64,000 nt of DNA from Anaeromyxobacter sp. (GCA_049840735.1 JASGJN010000007.1:96001-160000), one strand, 5' to 3'; shown: positions 54,823-64,000, counted from the first letter of the stretch. Notes: generated by a model from the sequence alone, not told the origin. Program-made: numbers and translations.

Positions 54823-55413
54823 TCAGGCCTGTTCTGCGCTCAGCACCCCCTGCAGCTCCGCCAGCAGCTCGGCCCGCACCGCAGTGGCGCGGTCGAAGGC
54901 CTCGCGCGCGTCGGCGCGGAGCCGCCGGCGATCCTCGCGGTTGGGATCGGTGCGGGAGGCCCAGTAGAGCGCGTGCGCTTCGGACCAGCCGTCGGCCAGC
55001 GCGCGCGCCTGGGCGCCGGCGCGGCCGCCCAGCAGGCACTCGGCCGTGGCGGTGGCCCGCAGCAGCTTGGGGAAGAGCGAGGAGAGCGTCTGGGCGGCGC
55101 GGGTCTCGTGCGAGAGGAAGGACTCGCGCCGCTCCTCGCGCGTGGCGTCCTCGTCCAGCAGGAGGTCGTGATAGGGGAGCAGCAGGTCGCGCAGCGCGCC
55201 CTCGAAGGCGGCGCTCTCGCTCCACAGGTCCACCGCCGCGGTGACCCGCGGCCCGTGCACCGCCGCCAGCACCACCCGGCGCGCCTCCAGCGCGTCCTCC
55301 AGCCGCGCCAGCCGGCGCTGCGAGAGGTGGCTCCAGATGGCTGACGCGACGGCCCCGGCGGCGGCCACGATCACGCCCGGGATCACCAGGCCGAAGAGGG
55401 TGAGGTCGTTCAC
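54823..55413 (-). CDS. Hypothetical membrane-anchored helical protein
   Basis: GTG 55413; N-terminal TM LFGLVIPGVIVAAAGAVASAIW; high GC3. Confidence 0.6.
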   Translation of the reverse strand: MNDLTLFGLVIPGVIVAAAGAVASAIWSHLSQRRLARLEDALEARRVVLAAVHGPRVTAAVDLWSESAAFEGALRDLLLPYHDLLLDEDATREERRESFLSHETRAAQTLSSLFPKLLRATATAECLLGGRAGAQARALADGWSEAHALYWASRTDPNREDRRRLRADAREAFDRATAVRAELLAELQGVLSAEQA

Positions 55414-55453: not shown

Positions 55454-57534
55454 TCACCCGCTGCCTCCGGCGGTCCGCTTCCAGATGGTGCCGCACCACA
55501 GGCAAACCCAGCGGCGCTCCTCGCTCGTGGCACGGGCGGTGAGGTGGGCGTCCAGGCGCGAGCCGTCGGTGCGCCCGCACCCGGGGCACCGCCGCTCGGT
55601 GCCGCCGGCGCTCGGGTTGCGGCGGGGTCGGCCCCGGCGGCGCGGCTTCTCCTGCGGCTGCTGCGAGAGCCAGATGGTCCCGCCCTGCGCGAGCTCCGGC
55701 AGCGGCAGCAGCCCGGCCGTCACGGTCGCGCTCCGGCCTGAGAAGTGCTCCACGAAGCGGGTACCGCTGGGAATGCCGCCGGCCTCCACCTCCAGCGGGC
55801 GAGCGGGCCGCGGGCGCTCACCGCGGTGGGCGATCACCAGTGCGCGGCCGGTGCGGCCCTCGCGCTGGTAGGCCAGGGTGTCCGGCTCCACCGAGAGCAC
55901 CTGGAAGCCGCCCTCCAGCAGCGGCTCGGAGGCGCGGCGGAGCTCGGCGAGCGAGCGGTAGAACCCGAGCAGGGGAACGTTCCAGCGATCCCGGTCCCAC
56001 ACCATGCAGCCGCGCGGCCCGAGCGCGGGGTCGTCCTCCATCCCGATTCTCGTCGCCGTACCAGAGCAGCGGGACGCCGGGGTAGGTGAACTGGATCACC
56101 GCGGCCAGCCGGTGGAGGGCGTCGTTGCCGCCCACCACGCTGCGGATGCGCTGCAGGTCGTGGCCGCCCACCATGAGCAGCGCGTGGCGCGCGCTGGTCC
56201 ACGGGATGACCGCGCGCGCCGCCCGCCACGCCGCCTCCAGCGCCTCGGTCGACATGGGGCCGCTGGCGATCCCTGCGTTCCTCCCGCTCGTGCTCCTCGT
56301 GCCGGCGGAGCCAGTGCCAGAGCGGGTAGGTGAAGCCCGCCATCTCGGCCACGCCGTCGAACTGGTCACCCTGCAGGCGGGGGGAGGCGTCCACGAAGCT
56401 GCGGCTCACGATGCAGGCGTCGGCGCGGGTCTCGCGAACGGCGCGGCGAACCTGGCGCAGGAGGTGGTCGGCCTCGCTGGCGCGATCCTCGGGCCGGCAG
56501 AGGTGCAGGGTCCAGCCGTCCGCTGCGTACGGCGGACGCAGCCAGTGCCGGAGGAACGCGTCCTCGGCCGTGAACATGCGCCGGACGAGCTCGGGGGCGC
56601 CGAGGTCGAGCCGCCGCTCGCCGCCCAGCCCCAGCCAGCGCTCGAAGTCCCCGTCGCGGCCCCGGACGAAGAACGCCGCCTCAGGTGAGGAGGGATTGGC
56701 CTGCGCAGCGCGAAACCAGGCGTGCCAGGCGCTCAGCTGGCTCGTATCGGCCTCCAGCAGGTAGCGCAGCCCGTGCGAGGTGAGGGCTTGGCGCAGCCGC
56801 GCCAGCGCCGCATCCCCGCCCAGCCGTGGATCCACGTGGCCGTGGTCGATCACGTTGTAGCGGTGGCTGGAAGGCGACGAGAAGACCGGCGTCAGGGCCA
56901 GCGCCGTGACCCCGAGCTCCGCGAGATGGTCGAGTCGCTCGGACACGCCGGCCAGGTCGCCGCCGTAGAAGGTCACCGGGAACGGGTGATCGGGAGAAGG
57001 AGGCGTACCCCACGGGAACAGCCGGGGAGGGGCGTCCGCGAACTCGCCTTCACGGTAGGTCCAGGTCTGGCCGTCGAGATCTCCCGGGAGGGCGTCCGCC
57101 GATCCACCGCGTGCGAATCGATCCACGAACGCCAGGTACAGCACCGCTGCGTGAAGCCAGGCCGGGCGAGCCCCGCCGGCCACCAGCTTGAAGTCGGTGA
57201 CGTCCGGCGGACTGTACGGCGTGATACCCGCCGCGGAGTAGGACCACACGCCGTCGTCGCTCTCGAGCACGAAGCGGTAGGACGTGAGCCCTGCTCGCAC
57301 GGGCAGCTCGGCCTCGTACCACTGCGCGGGCGGCTCGAGGGAACCGGGCTCCATGGGAGTGAAGACCTGCCACCCATCCGCGCACGTGCGCACGAACACG
57401 CGCCGGATTGGCGCCGATGCGGAGGCGCGGAGGCGAAGCCGGACGGGCTCACCCGCCGCCGGCTCTGGGTTCGAGACGTACGTCGCCGAGCCATCGTGAT
57501 GGATGGTGCCGAGCCAGGCCGGTGGAAACCGCAT
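55454..57534 (-). CDS. Maltodextrin glucosidase (MalZ)-like GH13 protein lacking catalytic residues, with C-terminal AT-hook and Zn-ribbon (apparent frameshifts at ~56270 and ~56047)
   Basis: HHDGS N-domain, DRFAR, FYGGDLAG, HVDPRLGGD, RHWLRPPY, GFTYPLW, PGVP..YGDE as in MalZ. Regions I-III read EADTSQ, DGWTLHL and IVSRSF. Tail KPRRRGRPRR..CPGC..CLWC. Length 3n+2. Confidence 0.8.
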
Positions 57535-57999
57535 TGCGAAGCTTAGGGCCGAATTCCCGGTTCGCGTCAAATGCATCGCACGGCGTATTGGCGCGTCGTC
57601 CTGCCGGCCGCCCTCCGTCCCCAGGCGATCCCGCTTCGCCAAGCTCTACCCCCGGTCGGGATGATGTTCGCAAGAAGGGTTCGCCACAAGGGGTCAATTC
57701 AAAGCCCCTAACGGGACAGTGCGCAGAGGTCTGACGAGGGTACACATCAGTGAAGTCAGTATCTTGTGTCGGCACGTCGAGGTGAGGTCGAGGGGGCTTG
57801 TGTGTGTGACGCGTAGCGTCGTTCGCATTTCTCAAGATCCAAAATCTCGTTGCCGGTTCTCCACGCGCACCCATAGCGTGGGCCGCCTCTCATTGAGGGT
57901 CAGACCCTGGACTGCATTGGGCGCGATAGAGCGTCGGGGCGCTCTATTGCGCAAACGCCGCCTGGGCGGCGCGGGGTTGCGGCCTGGCTTGGAGGAGTC

Positions 58000-60900
58000 A
58001 TGAAGGGGAACGTGTGGTGCGGGGCGCTGGCGCTGCTCCTGGTGGGCGCGCTGGCTGCTTGCGGTGGATCGCCGGCCGGGACCGGTGACGGGACGCAGAG
58101 CCAGGACGGAGGGGCGCTCACGAGCCCGGCCGTCATCTACTACTACCTGCCGTACAAGGGCTGGTCGCAGGCCAACATCCACCACGACGCCGCAGGCGCC
58201 TGGACCGCGGTGCCGGGGGTGGCCATGGCGCCGGCCTGCCCGAACTGGCTGGCCATCACGCTCAACTCCAGCGCGTCCAGCTTCCAGGCGGTCTTCACCG
58301 ACGGCCAGGGGCACTGGGACAACCCGACGGGCGGCGGCAACTACGTCGTGGGCGGCGGGATCTCGGTGGTCCAGAACGGCAAGCTCACTGCCAACGCCGC
58401 CAACCCCTGCGCCACGCCGCCGCCGGCCGTCACGGCCACCGTCTTCTACAAGATCGGCTGGGCGGCACCCAACATCCACCACAACGGCTCGGGCAGCTGG
58501 ACGGCCTCGCCGGGGGTGGCCATGGACGGCGCCTGCGCCGGCTGGTTCAAGAAGGCCATCACCCTGGGCGCCGGAGCCACCGCCTTCCAGGCGGTCTTCA
58601 ATGACGGCAAGGGGACCTGGGACAACAACGGTGGCCGGAACTACACGCTGGCCAGCGGGGTGTCGACCGTGAGCGGCGGCGTGGTCACCTCCAACGCCAC
58701 GGACCCCTGCGGCACGGTCGACACCACCCCTCCCACCGCGCCGTCGACGACGTCGGCCAGCGCCTCGGGGACCACCATCACCGTGAGCTGGGCGGCCTCC
58801 ACCGACGCCGAGAGCGGGGTCGCCAGATACGTCATCACCCGCACCGGCGGCACGCAGGGGCCGGTCACCCTGAGCAGCACCAGCACCACGCTGGTGGACG
58901 CCGGGCTCACGGCCGACACGCTCTACACCTACACGGTCGTGGCGGTGAACGGGGCCGGGCTGAGCTCGGCGGCTGGGCCGCAGGCCCAGGTGCGCACCGG
59001 GGCCGCGCCTCCTGGCGCGACCATCACGGTCTACTACGCGAACACCGCGGCCTGGGGCCTGGTCAACATGCACTACCAGAAGCTGGGCGTGACCTGGACC
59101 ACGCCGCCCGGCGAGGCCATGACGAAGGACTGCGACGACTGGTGGACGAAGCAGGTCGACCTGGGCACCGCCACCAGCATGAAGGCGGACTTCAACAACG
59201 GGAGCGCCTGGGACAACAACAGCGGCGCCGACTACGTGCTCACCGCCGGCATCGTGACCGTGCGCAACAAGGTCGTGACCAAGGTCACGGCCAGCCCCTG
59301 CACGCCGGACGTGACGCCGCCCAGCGCGCCCGGCACGCCCACGGCCACCGTCACCGGCGGCGTGAACGTGAACCTGGCCTGGGCGGCCTCCACGGACGAT
59401 CGCGGGCTGGCGGGCTATGACCTGACCCGCACCGGCGGCAGCCGGGGGACGGTGGCCCTGACGAGCGGCGTGGCCTCCTTCTACGACCCCAACCTGGACG
59501 AGAACACCAGCTACACCTACGCGGTCCGGGCCCGCGACAAGGCTGGCAACGTCTCGGCCTGGACGCCGGCCGTGCAGGTCCGCACCACGGTGGTGCCGCC
59601 CCCGCCGCCCACGCCGGACGCCACCCCGCCCATCGGCACCGATCCGCGCGAGGACGCCATCTACTTCGTGATGACGGCCCGGTTCTACGACGGGGATCCC
59701 ACCAACAACCGCGGCGGCAGCCAGCACGTGAGGTCGGGCAACGCGGCCAACAACGACCCCATGTTCCGGGGCGACTTCGCCGGCCTGATCCAGAAGCTCG
59801 ACTACATCAAGGCGCTGGGCTTCTCCGCCATCTGGATCACGCCCGTGGTGCTCAACCGGTCGGACTACGACTTCCACGGCTATCACGGCTGGGACTTCTA
59901 CCGCGTGGACCCGCGGCTCGAGTCGGCCGGCGCGACGTACCAGGATTTGATCAATGCCGCGCATGCCAAGGGGATCAAGATCATCCAGGACGTGGTCTAC
60001 AACCACTCCAGCCGCTGGGGCGCCAAGGGGCTCTGGACCACCAAGGTGTTCGGCGTGCGTGACTCGCAGTGGAGCTGGTACTACGACCAGCCGGTGGCTG
60101 GTCTCGAGTACGACGGCCTGACCATCGACCCGAACACCGGCAAGAGCTGGTACAACGGCGACCTGTGGTCGACGGCGGAGCCGGTCGGCAACACCTGCCG
60201 GTCCTGGGGCGTGGCCACCCAGTACTCCAGCCCGGAAGGCTACCGGATCTACAACTGCCAGTGGCCCAACCCGACCTCGGGCATGTTCCCGGCGCAGTAC
60301 TTCCACCAGTGCTGGATCGGCAACTGGGAGGGTGAGGACTCGCGCAGCTGCTGGCTGCACGAGGACCTGGCCGACTTCAACACCGAGAGCGCGGCCGTCC
60401 AGCAGTACCTGATCGGCGCCTACAACAGGTTCGTGGACATGGGCGTGGACGGGTTCCGCGTCGACACCGCGGTGCACATCCCGCGCGTCACCTGGAACCG
60501 GCGGCTGCTCCCGCCGCTCCATGCCCACGCCCAGGGCAAGTGGGGCGCGGCCGGCCAGAACTTCTTCGTGTTCGGCGAGGTGGCCGCGTTCGTGAACGAC
60601 AAGTGGAACCGCGGCTCGGTCAACCACTCGGCCCAGTTCTTCACCTGGAAGGAGCGCAAGGAGTACACGCAGGACGACGTCCAGGCGGCGCTCGATCAGT
60701 ACAACTACGAGCAGCAGCTGGGTACGGGCAACCAGCCCACCAGCACCAACGCCTTCCTGGACGGGAACGCCTACCACGCGCCGGACCACAGCCAGTTCTC
60801 GGGCATGAACATCATCGACATGCGCATGCACAACAACTTCTACGACGCGCGGAACGCGTTCCAGAACGGCATGGACTCGGACGATGCCACCAACGACTCC

Positions 60901-61579
60901 ACCTACAACGTGGTGTACGTGGACTCGCACGACTACGGGCCGGGCAAGTCGCTCAACACCTACGCCGGCGGGACCGACGCATGGGCCGAGAACATGAGCC
61001 TGATGTGGACGTTCCGCGGGATCCCGACGCTCTACATGGGCTCGGAGATCGAGTTCAAGGCCGGCGCTCCGATCGACTGCGGCCCGAACTGCCCGCTCTC
61101 CACCACCCGGCGTGCCTACTACGGTGACAACCTGGCGGGCACGGTCACGGCCGCCGACTTCGGCGTGACCGGCAGCGCCACCGGCGCGGTGGCGGCCACG
61201 ATGGACAAGCCGCTGGTGAAGCACCTGCAGCGCCTGAACCAGATTCCGCCGGCGCATCCCGGCGCTGCAGAAGGGCCAGTACTCCACCGCCGGCGTCAGC
61301 GGCTCGTCCACCGGCCTCGCGTACAAGCGGCGCTTCACCGACGCGGCCAGGGGCGTGGACAGCTTCGCGCTGGTCACCATCTCCAGCGGCGCCACGTTCA
61401 CCGGCATCCCCAACGGCACGTACAGGGACGCCATCACCGGTGACGTGCAGGTCGTGACGGCTGGCACCCTGACGGCTTCGGCCAGCGGGAAGGCCAACAT
61501 GCGCATCTACGTGCTCGATCTCCCGGGGAACCCCGCCCCGGGCAAGATCGGGAGCGACGGGCCGTACCTCAGGCCCTAG
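58000..61579 (+). CDS. Multimodular lipoprotein amylase/amylopullulanase: 3x CBM25-like, 2x FN3, GH13 (apparent +1 frameshift at ~61244)
   Basis: GGAGGAG SD; lipobox LAAC; W..PG..M...FNDG..WDNN modules; IYFVMTARFYDGD, DVVYNH, GFRVDT, FGEV, VDSHD (catalytic triad intact). Confidence 0.9.
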
Positions 61580-61798
61580 CCGGGCTCCGGCCGGCGGATC
61601 CCGGTTCCTCTCCCCGTTCGATCCGCGGATCCGCCGGCGGAGGTTGCAGCCTCTCCCCACCGCGCTCCCGCCGCTGCTCGCGGCGGGTGCGCCTTCACCA
61701 CCCACCACGACAACCCACGCGCGCCGGGAGGCGCGCCACGGGGCGCGTGCACCCATCGCCGGCGAGGGGATGGGCGCGTGCGCCCTCGAGGAGGCTTC

Positions 61799-64000
61799 AT
61801 GCAGACGGAACGACCGAAGGCTGGCTGGGCGCTCATCGCGCTCGCGGCAGCGGCGCTGGCGTGCGGAGGAAGCCCGGAGCAGGCGGCGGAGGGCCGAGCC
61901 GGCGGCGGCGCCGGCTCCCTCGCCAGCCCGGCAGTCATCTACTATTACCTGCCGTACAAGGGCTGGTCCCAGGCCTACGCCCACCACGCGGCCAGCGGAA
62001 GCTGGACGGCCGTCCCGGGCGTGCGCATGGCGCCCGCCTGCACCGGCTGGGTCAGCGTCACGCTCGACTCCGCGGCGAGCAGCTTCCAGGCGGTCTTCAA
62101 CGACGGCCAGGGGCACTGGGACAATCCGACCGGTGGCGGCAACTACGTGGTGGGGGCCGGGATCTCGGTGGTCCAGAACGGCCGCCTGACGGCCAACGCC
62201 GCCAATCCCTGCACCGCGCCCCCACCCGGCAGCACCGCCACCGTCTTCTACCGAACGAGCTGGACGGCGCCGAGGATCCACTACGGCGTGGGCGGCACCT
62301 GGACCACACCGCCGGGCCCCGCCATGGACCCGGCCTGCACCGGGTGGTGGAAGAAGAGCGTCGAGCTCGGCACGGCCACCGGTTCCCTGGTGACGTTCAA
62401 CGACGGCAGCGGCAGCTGGGACAACAACGGCGGCCGGAACTACGCGCTGGGGGCCGGGACCTCGACCGTCAGCGGCGCAGGAGTGACGGCGGGCGCCGCC
62501 GATCCCTGCGGCGGCGTGGACGTGACACCCCCGAGCCAGCCCCAGGGCGTGCTGGCGTCGGCGAGCGGCACCAGCATCACCGTGACCTGGTCGGCCTCGT
62601 CCGATGATTCGGGGCGTGACCGGCTACGAGGTCACGCGGACGGGCGGGTCGCAGGGGACCGTGGTCGCCACGGCTGCCGGCACCAGCCTGACCGCCACCG
62701 GGCTCACGCCTTCGACGCGTTACGCCTTCACGGTCAAGGCGCTCGACGCTGCGGGGAACCGCTCGGCGGCCAGCGCCGAGGCAGCGGCCACCACCGGCGG
62801 CGCCCCCACGGCGATCCGCATCTACTACAAGGGCGCGGCCTCCACGACCATCTGGACCTGGGAGCCGAGCGCCCGGGCCATCAGCCAGCTCGCGGGCTTC
62901 GCCTGGCCCGGGCCTGCCATGACGCCGGATCCGGAGAACCCGGGCTGGCTCTACTGGGAGCTGCCGCCGGCCTACGCGCCCTACAACGCGGCCCTGGCGT
63001 TCCTGTTCGCCGGGACCCAGACCCAGGTCAACCTGCCGGGGCCGGTGACGAGGTCGATGTGGTGGAACGGGACGGCCTGGTCGGATCACAACCCCGACCC
63101 GGCGACCGCCCCGGTGGTCACCGTGACGCCGAACGGCGGCTGGTTCGGGGCGGCGACCTCGACCAGCGTCAGCATCACCGTCACCACCCGCGCCGACGCG
63201 CCCGTCACGGCCATGACCTACCGGGTTGGCGGCGGGGCGGTCACGCCCTTCGCCTCGAGCCCGCTCGCCCTGACGGTGCCGCTCTCGGCCACGCCGGTCA
63301 CGGTGACGGTCAGCGCCACCAACGGCGTGGGGACCACCACCCTGACCAGCCAGCCCTTCCAGCAGGGCACGCAGCCCATGCCGTCCTTCAGCTGGAAGAA
63401 CGCCACCGTCTACTTCGTGATGACCGATCGGTTCGTGAACGGTGACACCTCGAACGACGGCTCCTTTGGCCGCGTGAAGGTGGACGCGACCGGCTCGAGC
63501 ATCGGCACCTTCCACGGTGGTGACCTCAGGGGCCTCCTGCAGAAGGTGGACGACGGCTACTTCACTTCGCTGGGCGTGAACGCCATCTGGATCACCGCGC
63601 CCTACGAGCAGATGCACGGCTGGACCGGCGGCGGGACCTCGGGTGACTTCGCCCACTACGCGTACCACGGCTACTACGCCCTGGACTGGACCAACCTCGA
63701 TCCGAACATGGGCACGACCACGGACCTCAAGGCGTTCGTGGACGCGGCCCACGCCAAGGGCATCCGGGTGGTGTTCGACGTGGTGATGAACCACACCGGC
63801 TACGCCACGCTCCGGGACATGGCCGACTTCGGGTTCGGCGGGAAGAAGGCAGGTTTCAACGCGGCCTGGACGCCCGCCGCAGGCCAGACCTGGCACAGCT
63901 GGAACGACCTGATGATTGACTATGCCTCCACCGCGGTCCAGGGGGACTGGGCGCGCTGGTGGGGGCAGCCGTGGATCCGGGCCGGGATCGTCGGCTACGA
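61799..64000 (+). CDS. Second multimodular lipoprotein alpha-amylase (2x CBM25-like, FN3, further modules, MalS-like GH13), 3'-truncated; apparent +1 frameshift at ~62608
   Basis: GAGGAGG SD; ALAC lipobox; after the shift FSWKNATVYFVMTDRF, IGTFHGGDLRG, YEQMHGW, YAYHGYYALDW, DVVMNHTGYAT. Confidence 0.88.

Follow-up and report, generated by a model that had tools for sequence, protein, structure and literature searches.

Bacterial sugar regulators normally sense their ligands through LacI, ROK or similar domains. Some eukaryotic proteins with an inactive amylase fold are kept for regulation; they have no zinc ribbon and act through protein partners, and the SLC3 heavy chains, which are inactive GH13 proteins, are one example. 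The pseudoamylases BAM9 and BAM4 are another, and BAM9 is reported to activate AMY3 (PMC12046210; PMC8774843). In Arabidopsis BAM7 and BAM8, an apparently inactive beta-amylase domain is joined to a DNA-binding domain, and both are proposed sugar sensors (PMC8774843). BAM7/8 are the closest functional precedent for the gene described here, which lies at 55454..57534 on the minus strand of a 64,000-nucleotide stretch of Anaeromyxobacter sp. (GCA_049840735.1 JASGJN010000007.1:96001-160000), hereafter the window. Like them, its product and seven relatives fuse an amylase-type fold, predicted from sequence to be inactive, to a candidate DNA-binding domain. BAM7/8 differ in being plant proteins of unrelated origin with a beta-amylase fold and a BZR1-type domain, and in acting on shoot growth rather than starch genes.

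The eight proteins very probably form a family in which a pseudoenzyme joined to a ribbon is maintained. The family is real, under selection, rare and so far undescribed in the literature searched. There is direct support for its architecture and single origin, for the linkage of the tail to catalytic loss, for the retention of the enzyme scaffold and for adjacency to secreted glucanases. We consider it somewhat better than an even chance that the window protein senses maltodextrins as a one-component regulator and is thus a bacterial counterpart of BAM7/8; in this reading, the lack of activity and the binding of sugar and of DNA are inferred. The order of domains is N domain, GH13 barrel, C domain, basic linker and Cys4 ribbon, with no signal peptide:

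55454..57534, minus strand: whole gene, about 692 residues if translated across the two breaks with X at each
56275..57534, minus strand: piece 1, covering the N-terminal beta domain and the barrel as far as region III (MalZ model PRK10785, E 1.6e-74)
56851..56871, minus strand: SSHRYNV, the retained His-x-Tyr floor of the -1/-2 subsites
56737..56754, minus strand: region I, EADTSQ, with Gln in place of the conserved His
56500..56520, minus strand: region II, DGWTLHL, nucleophile Asp replaced by His and the Arg before it by Thr
56395..56412, minus strand: region III, IVSRSF, acid/base Glu replaced by Arg
56268..56274, minus strand: frameshift 1 (+1), near 56272, beside GATC
56148..56168, minus strand: region IV, GGHDLQR, His-Asp kept; the Asp is present in all eight tail-bearing proteins
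56042..56049, minus strand: frameshift 2 (+1), near 56046, GAGAATC, beside GATC
55670..56041, minus strand: last part of the barrel, with the Arg of PRGCM kept, and C-terminal beta domain, whose final GGTIW falls at the point where active enzymes stop
55613..55648, minus strand: basic linker with an AT-hook-like RGRP core, KPRRRGRPRRNP; RGRP in four of the eight family members
55481..55588, minus strand: Cys4 zinc ribbon, CxxC-x24-CxxC-G-x2-W, three beta strands, NrdR/TFIIS type
55574..55588, minus strand: CPGCG of the ribbon
55481..55513, minus strand: RWVCLWCGTIW of the ribbon

From the ATG end at 57534 to the stop end at 55454, the gene is spread over three frames. PRK10785, the NCBIfam model of maltodextrin glucosidase, is the best or near-best model for each of the three pieces, and E. 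coli MalZ (5BN7/7VT9) matches the window protein at E 1e-50. The MalZ-like motifs lie where a first-pass annotation, made from the sequence alone, had placed them, with the active-site Asp and Glu replaced; the alignment to E. coli MalZ agrees, putting His at the nucleophile and Arg at the acid/base position. That annotation had also suspected two indels at GATC, and these were found as the two +1 shifts. The GAGAATC pattern of the second recurs at junctions in other genes of the assembly. Of 61 frame-switch junctions in four contigs, 32 have a GATC, GAATC or GATTC no more than 20 nt away (17% of random sites do), and both amylase genes next door (58000..61579 and 61778..64000) are broken by frameshifts of the same kind. 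Because junctions cluster at this class of site and the neighbouring amylases are broken alike, the two frameshifts are most likely assembly errors. Intact paralogues align without gaps across both breaks. Judged from its composition and its relatives, the tail is genuine coding sequence, because the GC content at third codon positions (GC3) is 0.94 over the last 65 codons and four intact paralogues have the tail in frame.

The genome of the window (6.7 Mb, 94% complete) contains seven MalZ-like genes. Five carry the Cys4 tail, four of them intact: C7 (the window gene), C22a (P0004, 68% identical to the window gene), C22b (P0005), C4 (P0006) and C14 (P0008). The other two, C20 (P0007) and C26 (P0009), have the catalytic triad and no tail, and the sister active paralogue is 51% identical. 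Three further tail-bearing proteins, P0010, P0060 and P0061, are singletons on 3-14 kb contigs of JGI metagenomes. In an alignment of 68 proteins, comprising the paralogues and homologue hits (P0012, a duplicate of P0007, and the fragment P0036 were left out), the nucleophile Asp is absent from all eight tailed proteins and the Asp/Glu/Asp triad is kept in 59 of 60 tail-less ones. The sole tail-less exception, P0035, is a distant MalZ homologue on a long branch with Gly at the nucleophile position. In each of the four other genomes of the taxonomic family where MalZ has a close homologue, that enzyme is single, intact and without the tail. Hence, the association proposed in the first-pass annotation is borne out: loss of the triad Asp and the tail occur together in eight of eight proteins, in one clade and mostly beside secreted glucanases.

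In a quick tree search with 39 GH13 parts, tails removed, the eight tailed proteins lie on one side of a branch with a Shimodaira-Hasegawa-like approximate likelihood ratio (SH-aLRT) support of 97. With the 47 active-site columns dropped, a 22-row tree returns the same clade at support 93. Its sister is the group holding P0007. Because the eight form one clade, the tail and the catalytic loss are best placed at one origin, not eight events. P0060 clusters with C7 and C22a, with which it has in common DGWTLHL and the RGRP linker; its ribbon is 69-73% identical to theirs. The pairing of P0005 with P0061 has support 96 on the full tree and is not resolved without the active-site columns. The basal members P0006 and P0010 retain both the region II Arg and the acid/base Glu and later members lose both, which suggests that the catalytic residues were lost stepwise.

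A decaying gene with a chance read-through tail and genuine frameshifts is highly improbable. The two frameshifts would fit such decay, as would the GC3 of the window copy (0.90, against 0.97-0.99 in its paralogues) and the longer branches of tailed proteins relative to active enzymes. However, seven intact relatives, three of them from other samples, carry the same tail, and the breaks fit the GATC error class. Between C7 and C22a, dN (0.22) is below dS (0.55), though the ratio is indicative only since synonymous sites are saturated. At a GC3 of 0.97-0.99 this saturation makes dN/dS unreliable, and the active C20 compared with C26 gives 0.74/0.53. Any genuine decay would concern the window copy; the family as a whole is not a product of decay.

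The scaffold of the enzyme has been kept. MalZ and Apg (GH13_21; 5BN7, 7VT9, 9IXW) share the N domain, barrel, C domain and donor-side pocket residues with the window protein. Unlike it, they have the nucleophile, the acid/base, the region I His and the region II Arg, and lack linker and ribbon. An AlphaFold model of the intact paralogue P0004 (predicted local distance difference test, pLDDT, 87.8) resembles MalZ, Apg and TVA I at template modelling (TM) scores of 0.86-0.89, and the ribbon sits behind a disordered linker; the score against MalZ itself (7VT9) is 0.87. Among 144 columns invariant in 58 active enzymes, all eight tailed proteins retain 72 and the window protein 103, and the losses cluster in regions I, II and III and the beta-6/7 loops.

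Pocket residues were placed by alignment onto the Apg numbering of PMC12373829. Equivalents of the His of HxY, Tyr211, Trp292, Gly170, Asp448 and Arg496 are present in all eight proteins, save one Tyr to Phe and one Trp to Tyr. The earlier statement that only the region IV His-Asp remains was too narrow, as HxY and the Trp and Arg of the -2/-3 subsites also survive. In the window protein, the equivalents of His251, Arg334, Asp336 and Glu373 are all replaced. The nucleophile is non-Asp in 8/8 and the acid/base Glu is retained in 2/8; Asp336, Glu373 and Arg334 are jointly gone in five, the window protein among them. The replacements had been read as multi-base changes. At the nucleophile this does not hold, GAC to CAC being one base, but the change itself is real because P0004 and P0060 carry the same His. 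Retention of the pocket residues alongside replacement of the catalytic ones is expected if the protein needs to hold the non-reducing end of a sugar without needing to cut it. The inactive D448N variant of Apg is reported to bind ligand more tightly (PMC12373829).

These residues bear on another explanation, an enzyme with altered chemistry or substrate that works through the region IV Asp, as proposed for Apg, with the ribbon as an accessory metal or localisation domain. In Apg, D336A is reported to retain 48% activity and D448 to be essential, and the authors argue that D448 is the nucleophile (PMC12373829). The Asp448 equivalent is present in 8/8 tailed proteins, Arg and Glu persist in the basal P0006 and P0010, and derived pocket residues are common to orthologue pairs (17/29 and 16/21) more often than across subfamilies (3/20 and 6/22). 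On the other hand, Apg E373A/R334A is reported inactive (PMC12373829), and five of eight proteins have lost Arg334 and Glu373 along with Asp336. The substitutes at the nucleophile site also vary by subfamily (His, Asn, Ser, Tyr), with no common new catalytic set. We regard an altered enzyme as quite unlikely.

In the tail, the conserved candidate for DNA binding is the ribbon, not the AT-hook emphasized in the first-pass annotation with reference to CarD. In CarD and HMGA proteins, AT-hooks are repeated and accompanied by an acidic region. The window protein resembles them in its RGRP core within a basic stretch (KPRRRGRPRR) but has a single copy, found in 4/8 members, and no CarD domain, and no Pfam AT-hook match is listed for the tails at E<=10. 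RGRP occurs in two branches of the family tree. Because only 10 of 715 (1.4%) Arg/Pro-rich windows in the genome's proteome contain it, the RGRP linker looks selected but optional. In the ribbon, C3, P4, C6, G7, G11, R13, R28, W29, C31, L32, C34, G35 and W38 are invariant in 8/8, and three Trp are conserved. The spacing was corrected: 20 residues, not 22, separate CG from RWVC, and the Cys pairs are 24 residues apart.

NrdR is one of the closest described systems. Its D15 and R17 read bases and give specificity, and its arginines 12, 26-29 and 37 hold the DNA backbone, as reported in PMC9110341 and PMC12176259. The tails have identical Cys spacing, an acidic residue at position 15 (8/8), Arg (6/8) or His (2/8) at 17 and Arg28 (8/8), and the protein repeats the logic of a ligand-binding domain combined with a ribbon. 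The window tail has Asp15 and His17, position 37 is Ile/Thr across the family, and an invariant Arg13 is added on the same strand face. Against 14 myxobacterial NrdR ribbons, hhalign gives 93.6% with no gaps and strands at matching places; the score was reached by 0/150 column shuffles with Cys fixed and 2/150 with CP..CG and CG fixed. Over 92 genomes of the taxonomic family, 7 of 14 weak loci found by the tail profile are NrdR ribbons. Unlike NrdR, the protein carries its ribbon at the C-terminus (only 0-8 residues follow the last Trp), scores under the NrdR family's cut-off, has neither RRRR nor Arg37, and has a 610-residue GH13 module as sensor in place of an ATP-cone, in a genome with its own nrdR. 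That gene (C2:185611-185732, minus strand) is split by a frameshift inside its ribbon, probably an assembly error. At best, the tail may work like an NrdR ribbon; it is not an NrdR. An NCBIfam profile search did not single out NrdR for the ribbon, and structure prediction of a ribbon homodimer with zinc scored 0.01, too low to count either way. An unannotated phage family, phrog_1467, matches all eight ribbons weakly (best E 7e-4), and P0050 and P0053 are small standalone NrdR-type ribbons that match the tail profile; ribbons like these are possible donors of the tail.

TFIIS has an invariant Asp-Glu at its hairpin tip. The CG-x2-W end of the tails is TFIIS-like, and a sugar-responsive regulator whose target is RNA or RNA polymerase, not an operator, would suit the long 5' regions of the amylase genes and the hairpins in the leader of the gene linked to C22b. 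Fold searches place TFIIS/Rpb9 level with NrdR, and Pfam PF01096 (TFIIS) scores 14 bits against the tails (cut-off 21). However, the hairpin-tip columns vary across the eight tails, with no invariant acidic pair, and Rfam has no match in the glucanase leaders. This alternative is very unlikely. The hairpins themselves, several in number, lie in the leader of the GH57 gene that follows C22b (L022 10088-10178) and have no Rfam match.

The family is rare, with one genome and three metagenome proteins. Among the 92 genomes of the taxonomic family the tail was found only in that of the window, and a tail profile search at E<=1e-6 found no other genome among 363 of the order and 401 of the phylum (18-19 candidates scored per genome). 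In a profile search of 1.84 billion representatives, the only true matches were the family members P0008 and P0002, followed by repeat proteins and small ribbons, two of which are NrdR-type in Pfam. A homologue search with all eight ribbons added no member. Full-length alignment to metagenome contigs was dominated by ordinary GH13 proteins, with the tail in 0/80 loci. Tail patterns gave four weak matches of 16-32 residues each in Firmicutes metagenome-assembled genomes among GTDB contigs, and ESM Atlas gave no usable feature match for the family. A plasmid match at E 0.2 was rejected, as was P0096, an unrelated 52-residue sequence in the cluster of P0004. Databases name the family proteins alpha-glucosidase or not at all. 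The first-pass annotation knew of no regulator with this architecture, and a literature search that covered few subscription papers likewise found no description of it.

The neighbourhood of the window gene is as follows:

57535..57999: divergent spacer of about 465 bp, GC 0.62 against 0.74 for the window
58000..61579, plus strand: secreted GH13 amylase 1, three CBM25, Fn3 and CBM26, triad motifs intact, frameshift near 61258
61778..64000, plus strand: secreted GH13 amylase 2, two CBM25 and Fn3, extending beyond the window, frameshift near 62612
57705..57715, plus strand: candidate operator core CCCCTAACGGG, its TAACGGG common with three other secreted-glucanase promoters; a weak lead
57540..57570, minus strand: candidate promoter TTGACG-19 nt-TAAGCT, found by eye, 5 nt before the ATG

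The divergent, lower-GC spacer next to two secreted amylases is as first described. For three of the five tailed paralogues, a secreted alpha-glucanase gene is less than 470 bp away, and for a fourth less than 3 kb. C7 diverges from its two CBM25 amylases (~466 bp) and C14 from a secreted GH13 gene (365 bp), a GH57-CBM20 gene and a GH31 gene follow directly downstream of C22b (374 bp), and C22a is 2.9 kb from two CBM25 amylases. With 13 analyst-chosen secreted-glucanase loci, chance would put a gene within 500 bp of one in 0.2% of cases. The active C20 and C26 are 75 and 162 kb from secreted glucanases; C26 faces a sugar-binding-protein gene. The genome is rich in starch genes (54 PF00128 matches, nine CBM25 domains), and it alone has CBM25 among the 92 genomes of the taxonomic family.

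Proteins that control E. coli MalT offer a model for action at the protein level. A pseudoenzyme could likewise form a heterodimer with an active MalZ paralogue or bind another regulator or a transporter, with the ribbon as an interaction module. Such action would have a precedent in BAM9 and AMY3 (PMC12046210). MalZ-type enzymes are dimeric, Apg being reported so in solution (PMC12373829), and the genome encodes the active sister paralogue. The ribbon has its three conserved Trp, and its NrdR match is sub-threshold. This explanation leaves without account the invariant surface of acidic-15, Arg-13 and Arg-28, the basic linker with RGRP in two tree branches, and adjacency to secreted rather than cytoplasmic enzymes. 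It is unlikely but deserves serious weight.

TAACGGG is a candidate site that could belong to another factor. It occurs in three of four linked spacers, which was equalled by 7 of 1500 random sets and 45 of 1500 AT-matched ones. The remaining CBM25 gene, on C4 and itself located by motif search, also has TAACGGG upstream, and genome-wide the heptamer is in 21 of 2861 intergenic regions and in the C7 spacer. With a matrix of the site, one of 20 held-out regions had a near match, scoring 10.7 (95th-99th background percentile), and the others scored <=8.3. An expectation-maximization motif search of 15 glucanase upstream regions returned only low-information motifs and had no control run. Two other candidates, GGGT-N2-ACCC and a pattern that we liken to an NrdR box (one match, at 57757), were rejected as not specific to glucanase loci.

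The candidate promoter of the window gene has a long spacer and was not returned by a scan limited to 16-18 nt spacing. There is no clear ribosome-binding site in 57540-57570 (minus strand), and the transcript is possibly leaderless. An inverted repeat of 13 bp (57921-57952, 6-nt loop, 92% complementary) lies about 50 bp before the amylase start. Just downstream of the window gene, an open reading frame of 176 residues (54826-55353, minus strand) that has a hydrophobic segment at its N-terminus and matches no Pfam family may be co-transcribed with it. C22a starts 3 nt past a MarR-type gene (L021 12588-13169, minus strand) at the end of a cluster that looks to us like menaquinone synthesis. The genes at L025 1-3811 (minus strand), 2.4 kb from the C14 glucanase locus, are presumably nitrogenase-like, judged from their translations. 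Two secreted GH13 genes, C4:103383-106850 and C20:553470-556943, have different N-terminal modules and a common 627-residue domain that is 98% identical, the result of recent duplication or gene conversion.

If the window protein is a maltodextrin-sensing regulator, a cytoplasmic MalZ-type maltodextrin glucosidase would once have lost its cutting residues, with the fold and the non-reducing-end subsites remaining, and gained a Cys4 zinc ribbon at its C-terminus behind a basic linker. The barrel would bind maltose or maltodextrins imported after the secreted amylases act. Its MalZ-type dimer would present two ribbons, which may read a short palindromic site in glucanase promoters in the manner of NrdR, and the RGRP linker would give optional help in the minor groove. 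Bound sugar would then alter the ribbon geometry and switch amylase transcription, and the remodelled pocket of each paralogue would sense a different alpha-glucan product for a different locus. In its fullest form, the proposal is tentative and stands somewhat below an even chance: a transcription factor family that arose de novo when a complete glycoside hydrolase of 610 residues was joined to an NrdR-type zinc ribbon, and that is caught mid-evolution, with loss of the nucleophile alone in basal members and of the acid/base and Arg also in later ones. The paralogues, their pockets diversified, would each tune a secreted alpha-glucanase locus of their own by way of a site of the CCC-N-TAACGGG type.

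Several observations weigh against such a regulator. By analogy with Apg, whose D336A variant keeps nearly half its activity and whose proposed nucleophile D448 is conserved here, the label "dead" given to the window protein is uncertain (PMC12373829), and BmaN1 is reported as an active GH13 enzyme despite an aberrant triad (PMC5347038). The pocket may also fail to bind maltodextrin, because the window protein has lost two residues that bind the -1 sugar, the His of region I and the Arg of region II. For the ribbon, PF22811 (NrdR) gives 15.2 bits with the window tail and at best 18.2 (P0060), below the cut-off of 27.2; NrdR Arg26/27/29 and Arg37 are missing and position 17 is His in the window protein. 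Fold searches tie NrdR with TFIIS/Rpb9/GRF ribbons (Z ~3, E>0.2), and a PDB profile search puts it at E 1.5, after rubredoxins and L37a. At the loci, the C4 paralogue is 38 kb from the nearest secreted glucanase. Because the amylases at C7 and C22a are paralogous (75-80% identical), the neighbourhood evidence is not fully independent and amounts to about three of four lineages. The operator candidate is weak (p ~0.005 unmatched, 0.03 AT-matched), and TAACGGG is absent upstream of the GH57 gene linked to C22b. Five LacI-family genes in the genome are possible ordinary regulators. Overall, the observation made in the first-pass annotation is confirmed and its interpretation supported in part.

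If the regulator is borne out, a GH13 hydrolase as sensor and a ribbon as reader would be a new pair, and sequence-specific reading by such a ribbon is so far known mainly from NrdR. It would also be a bacterial parallel to BAM7/8, whose sugar sensing remains a proposal in PMC8774843. The eight proteins range from members that have lost only the nucleophile to fully remodelled ones; together with an active sister, they make the transition from enzyme to regulator directly testable, and they bear on the claim that the region IV Asp alone supports MalZ-type catalysis.

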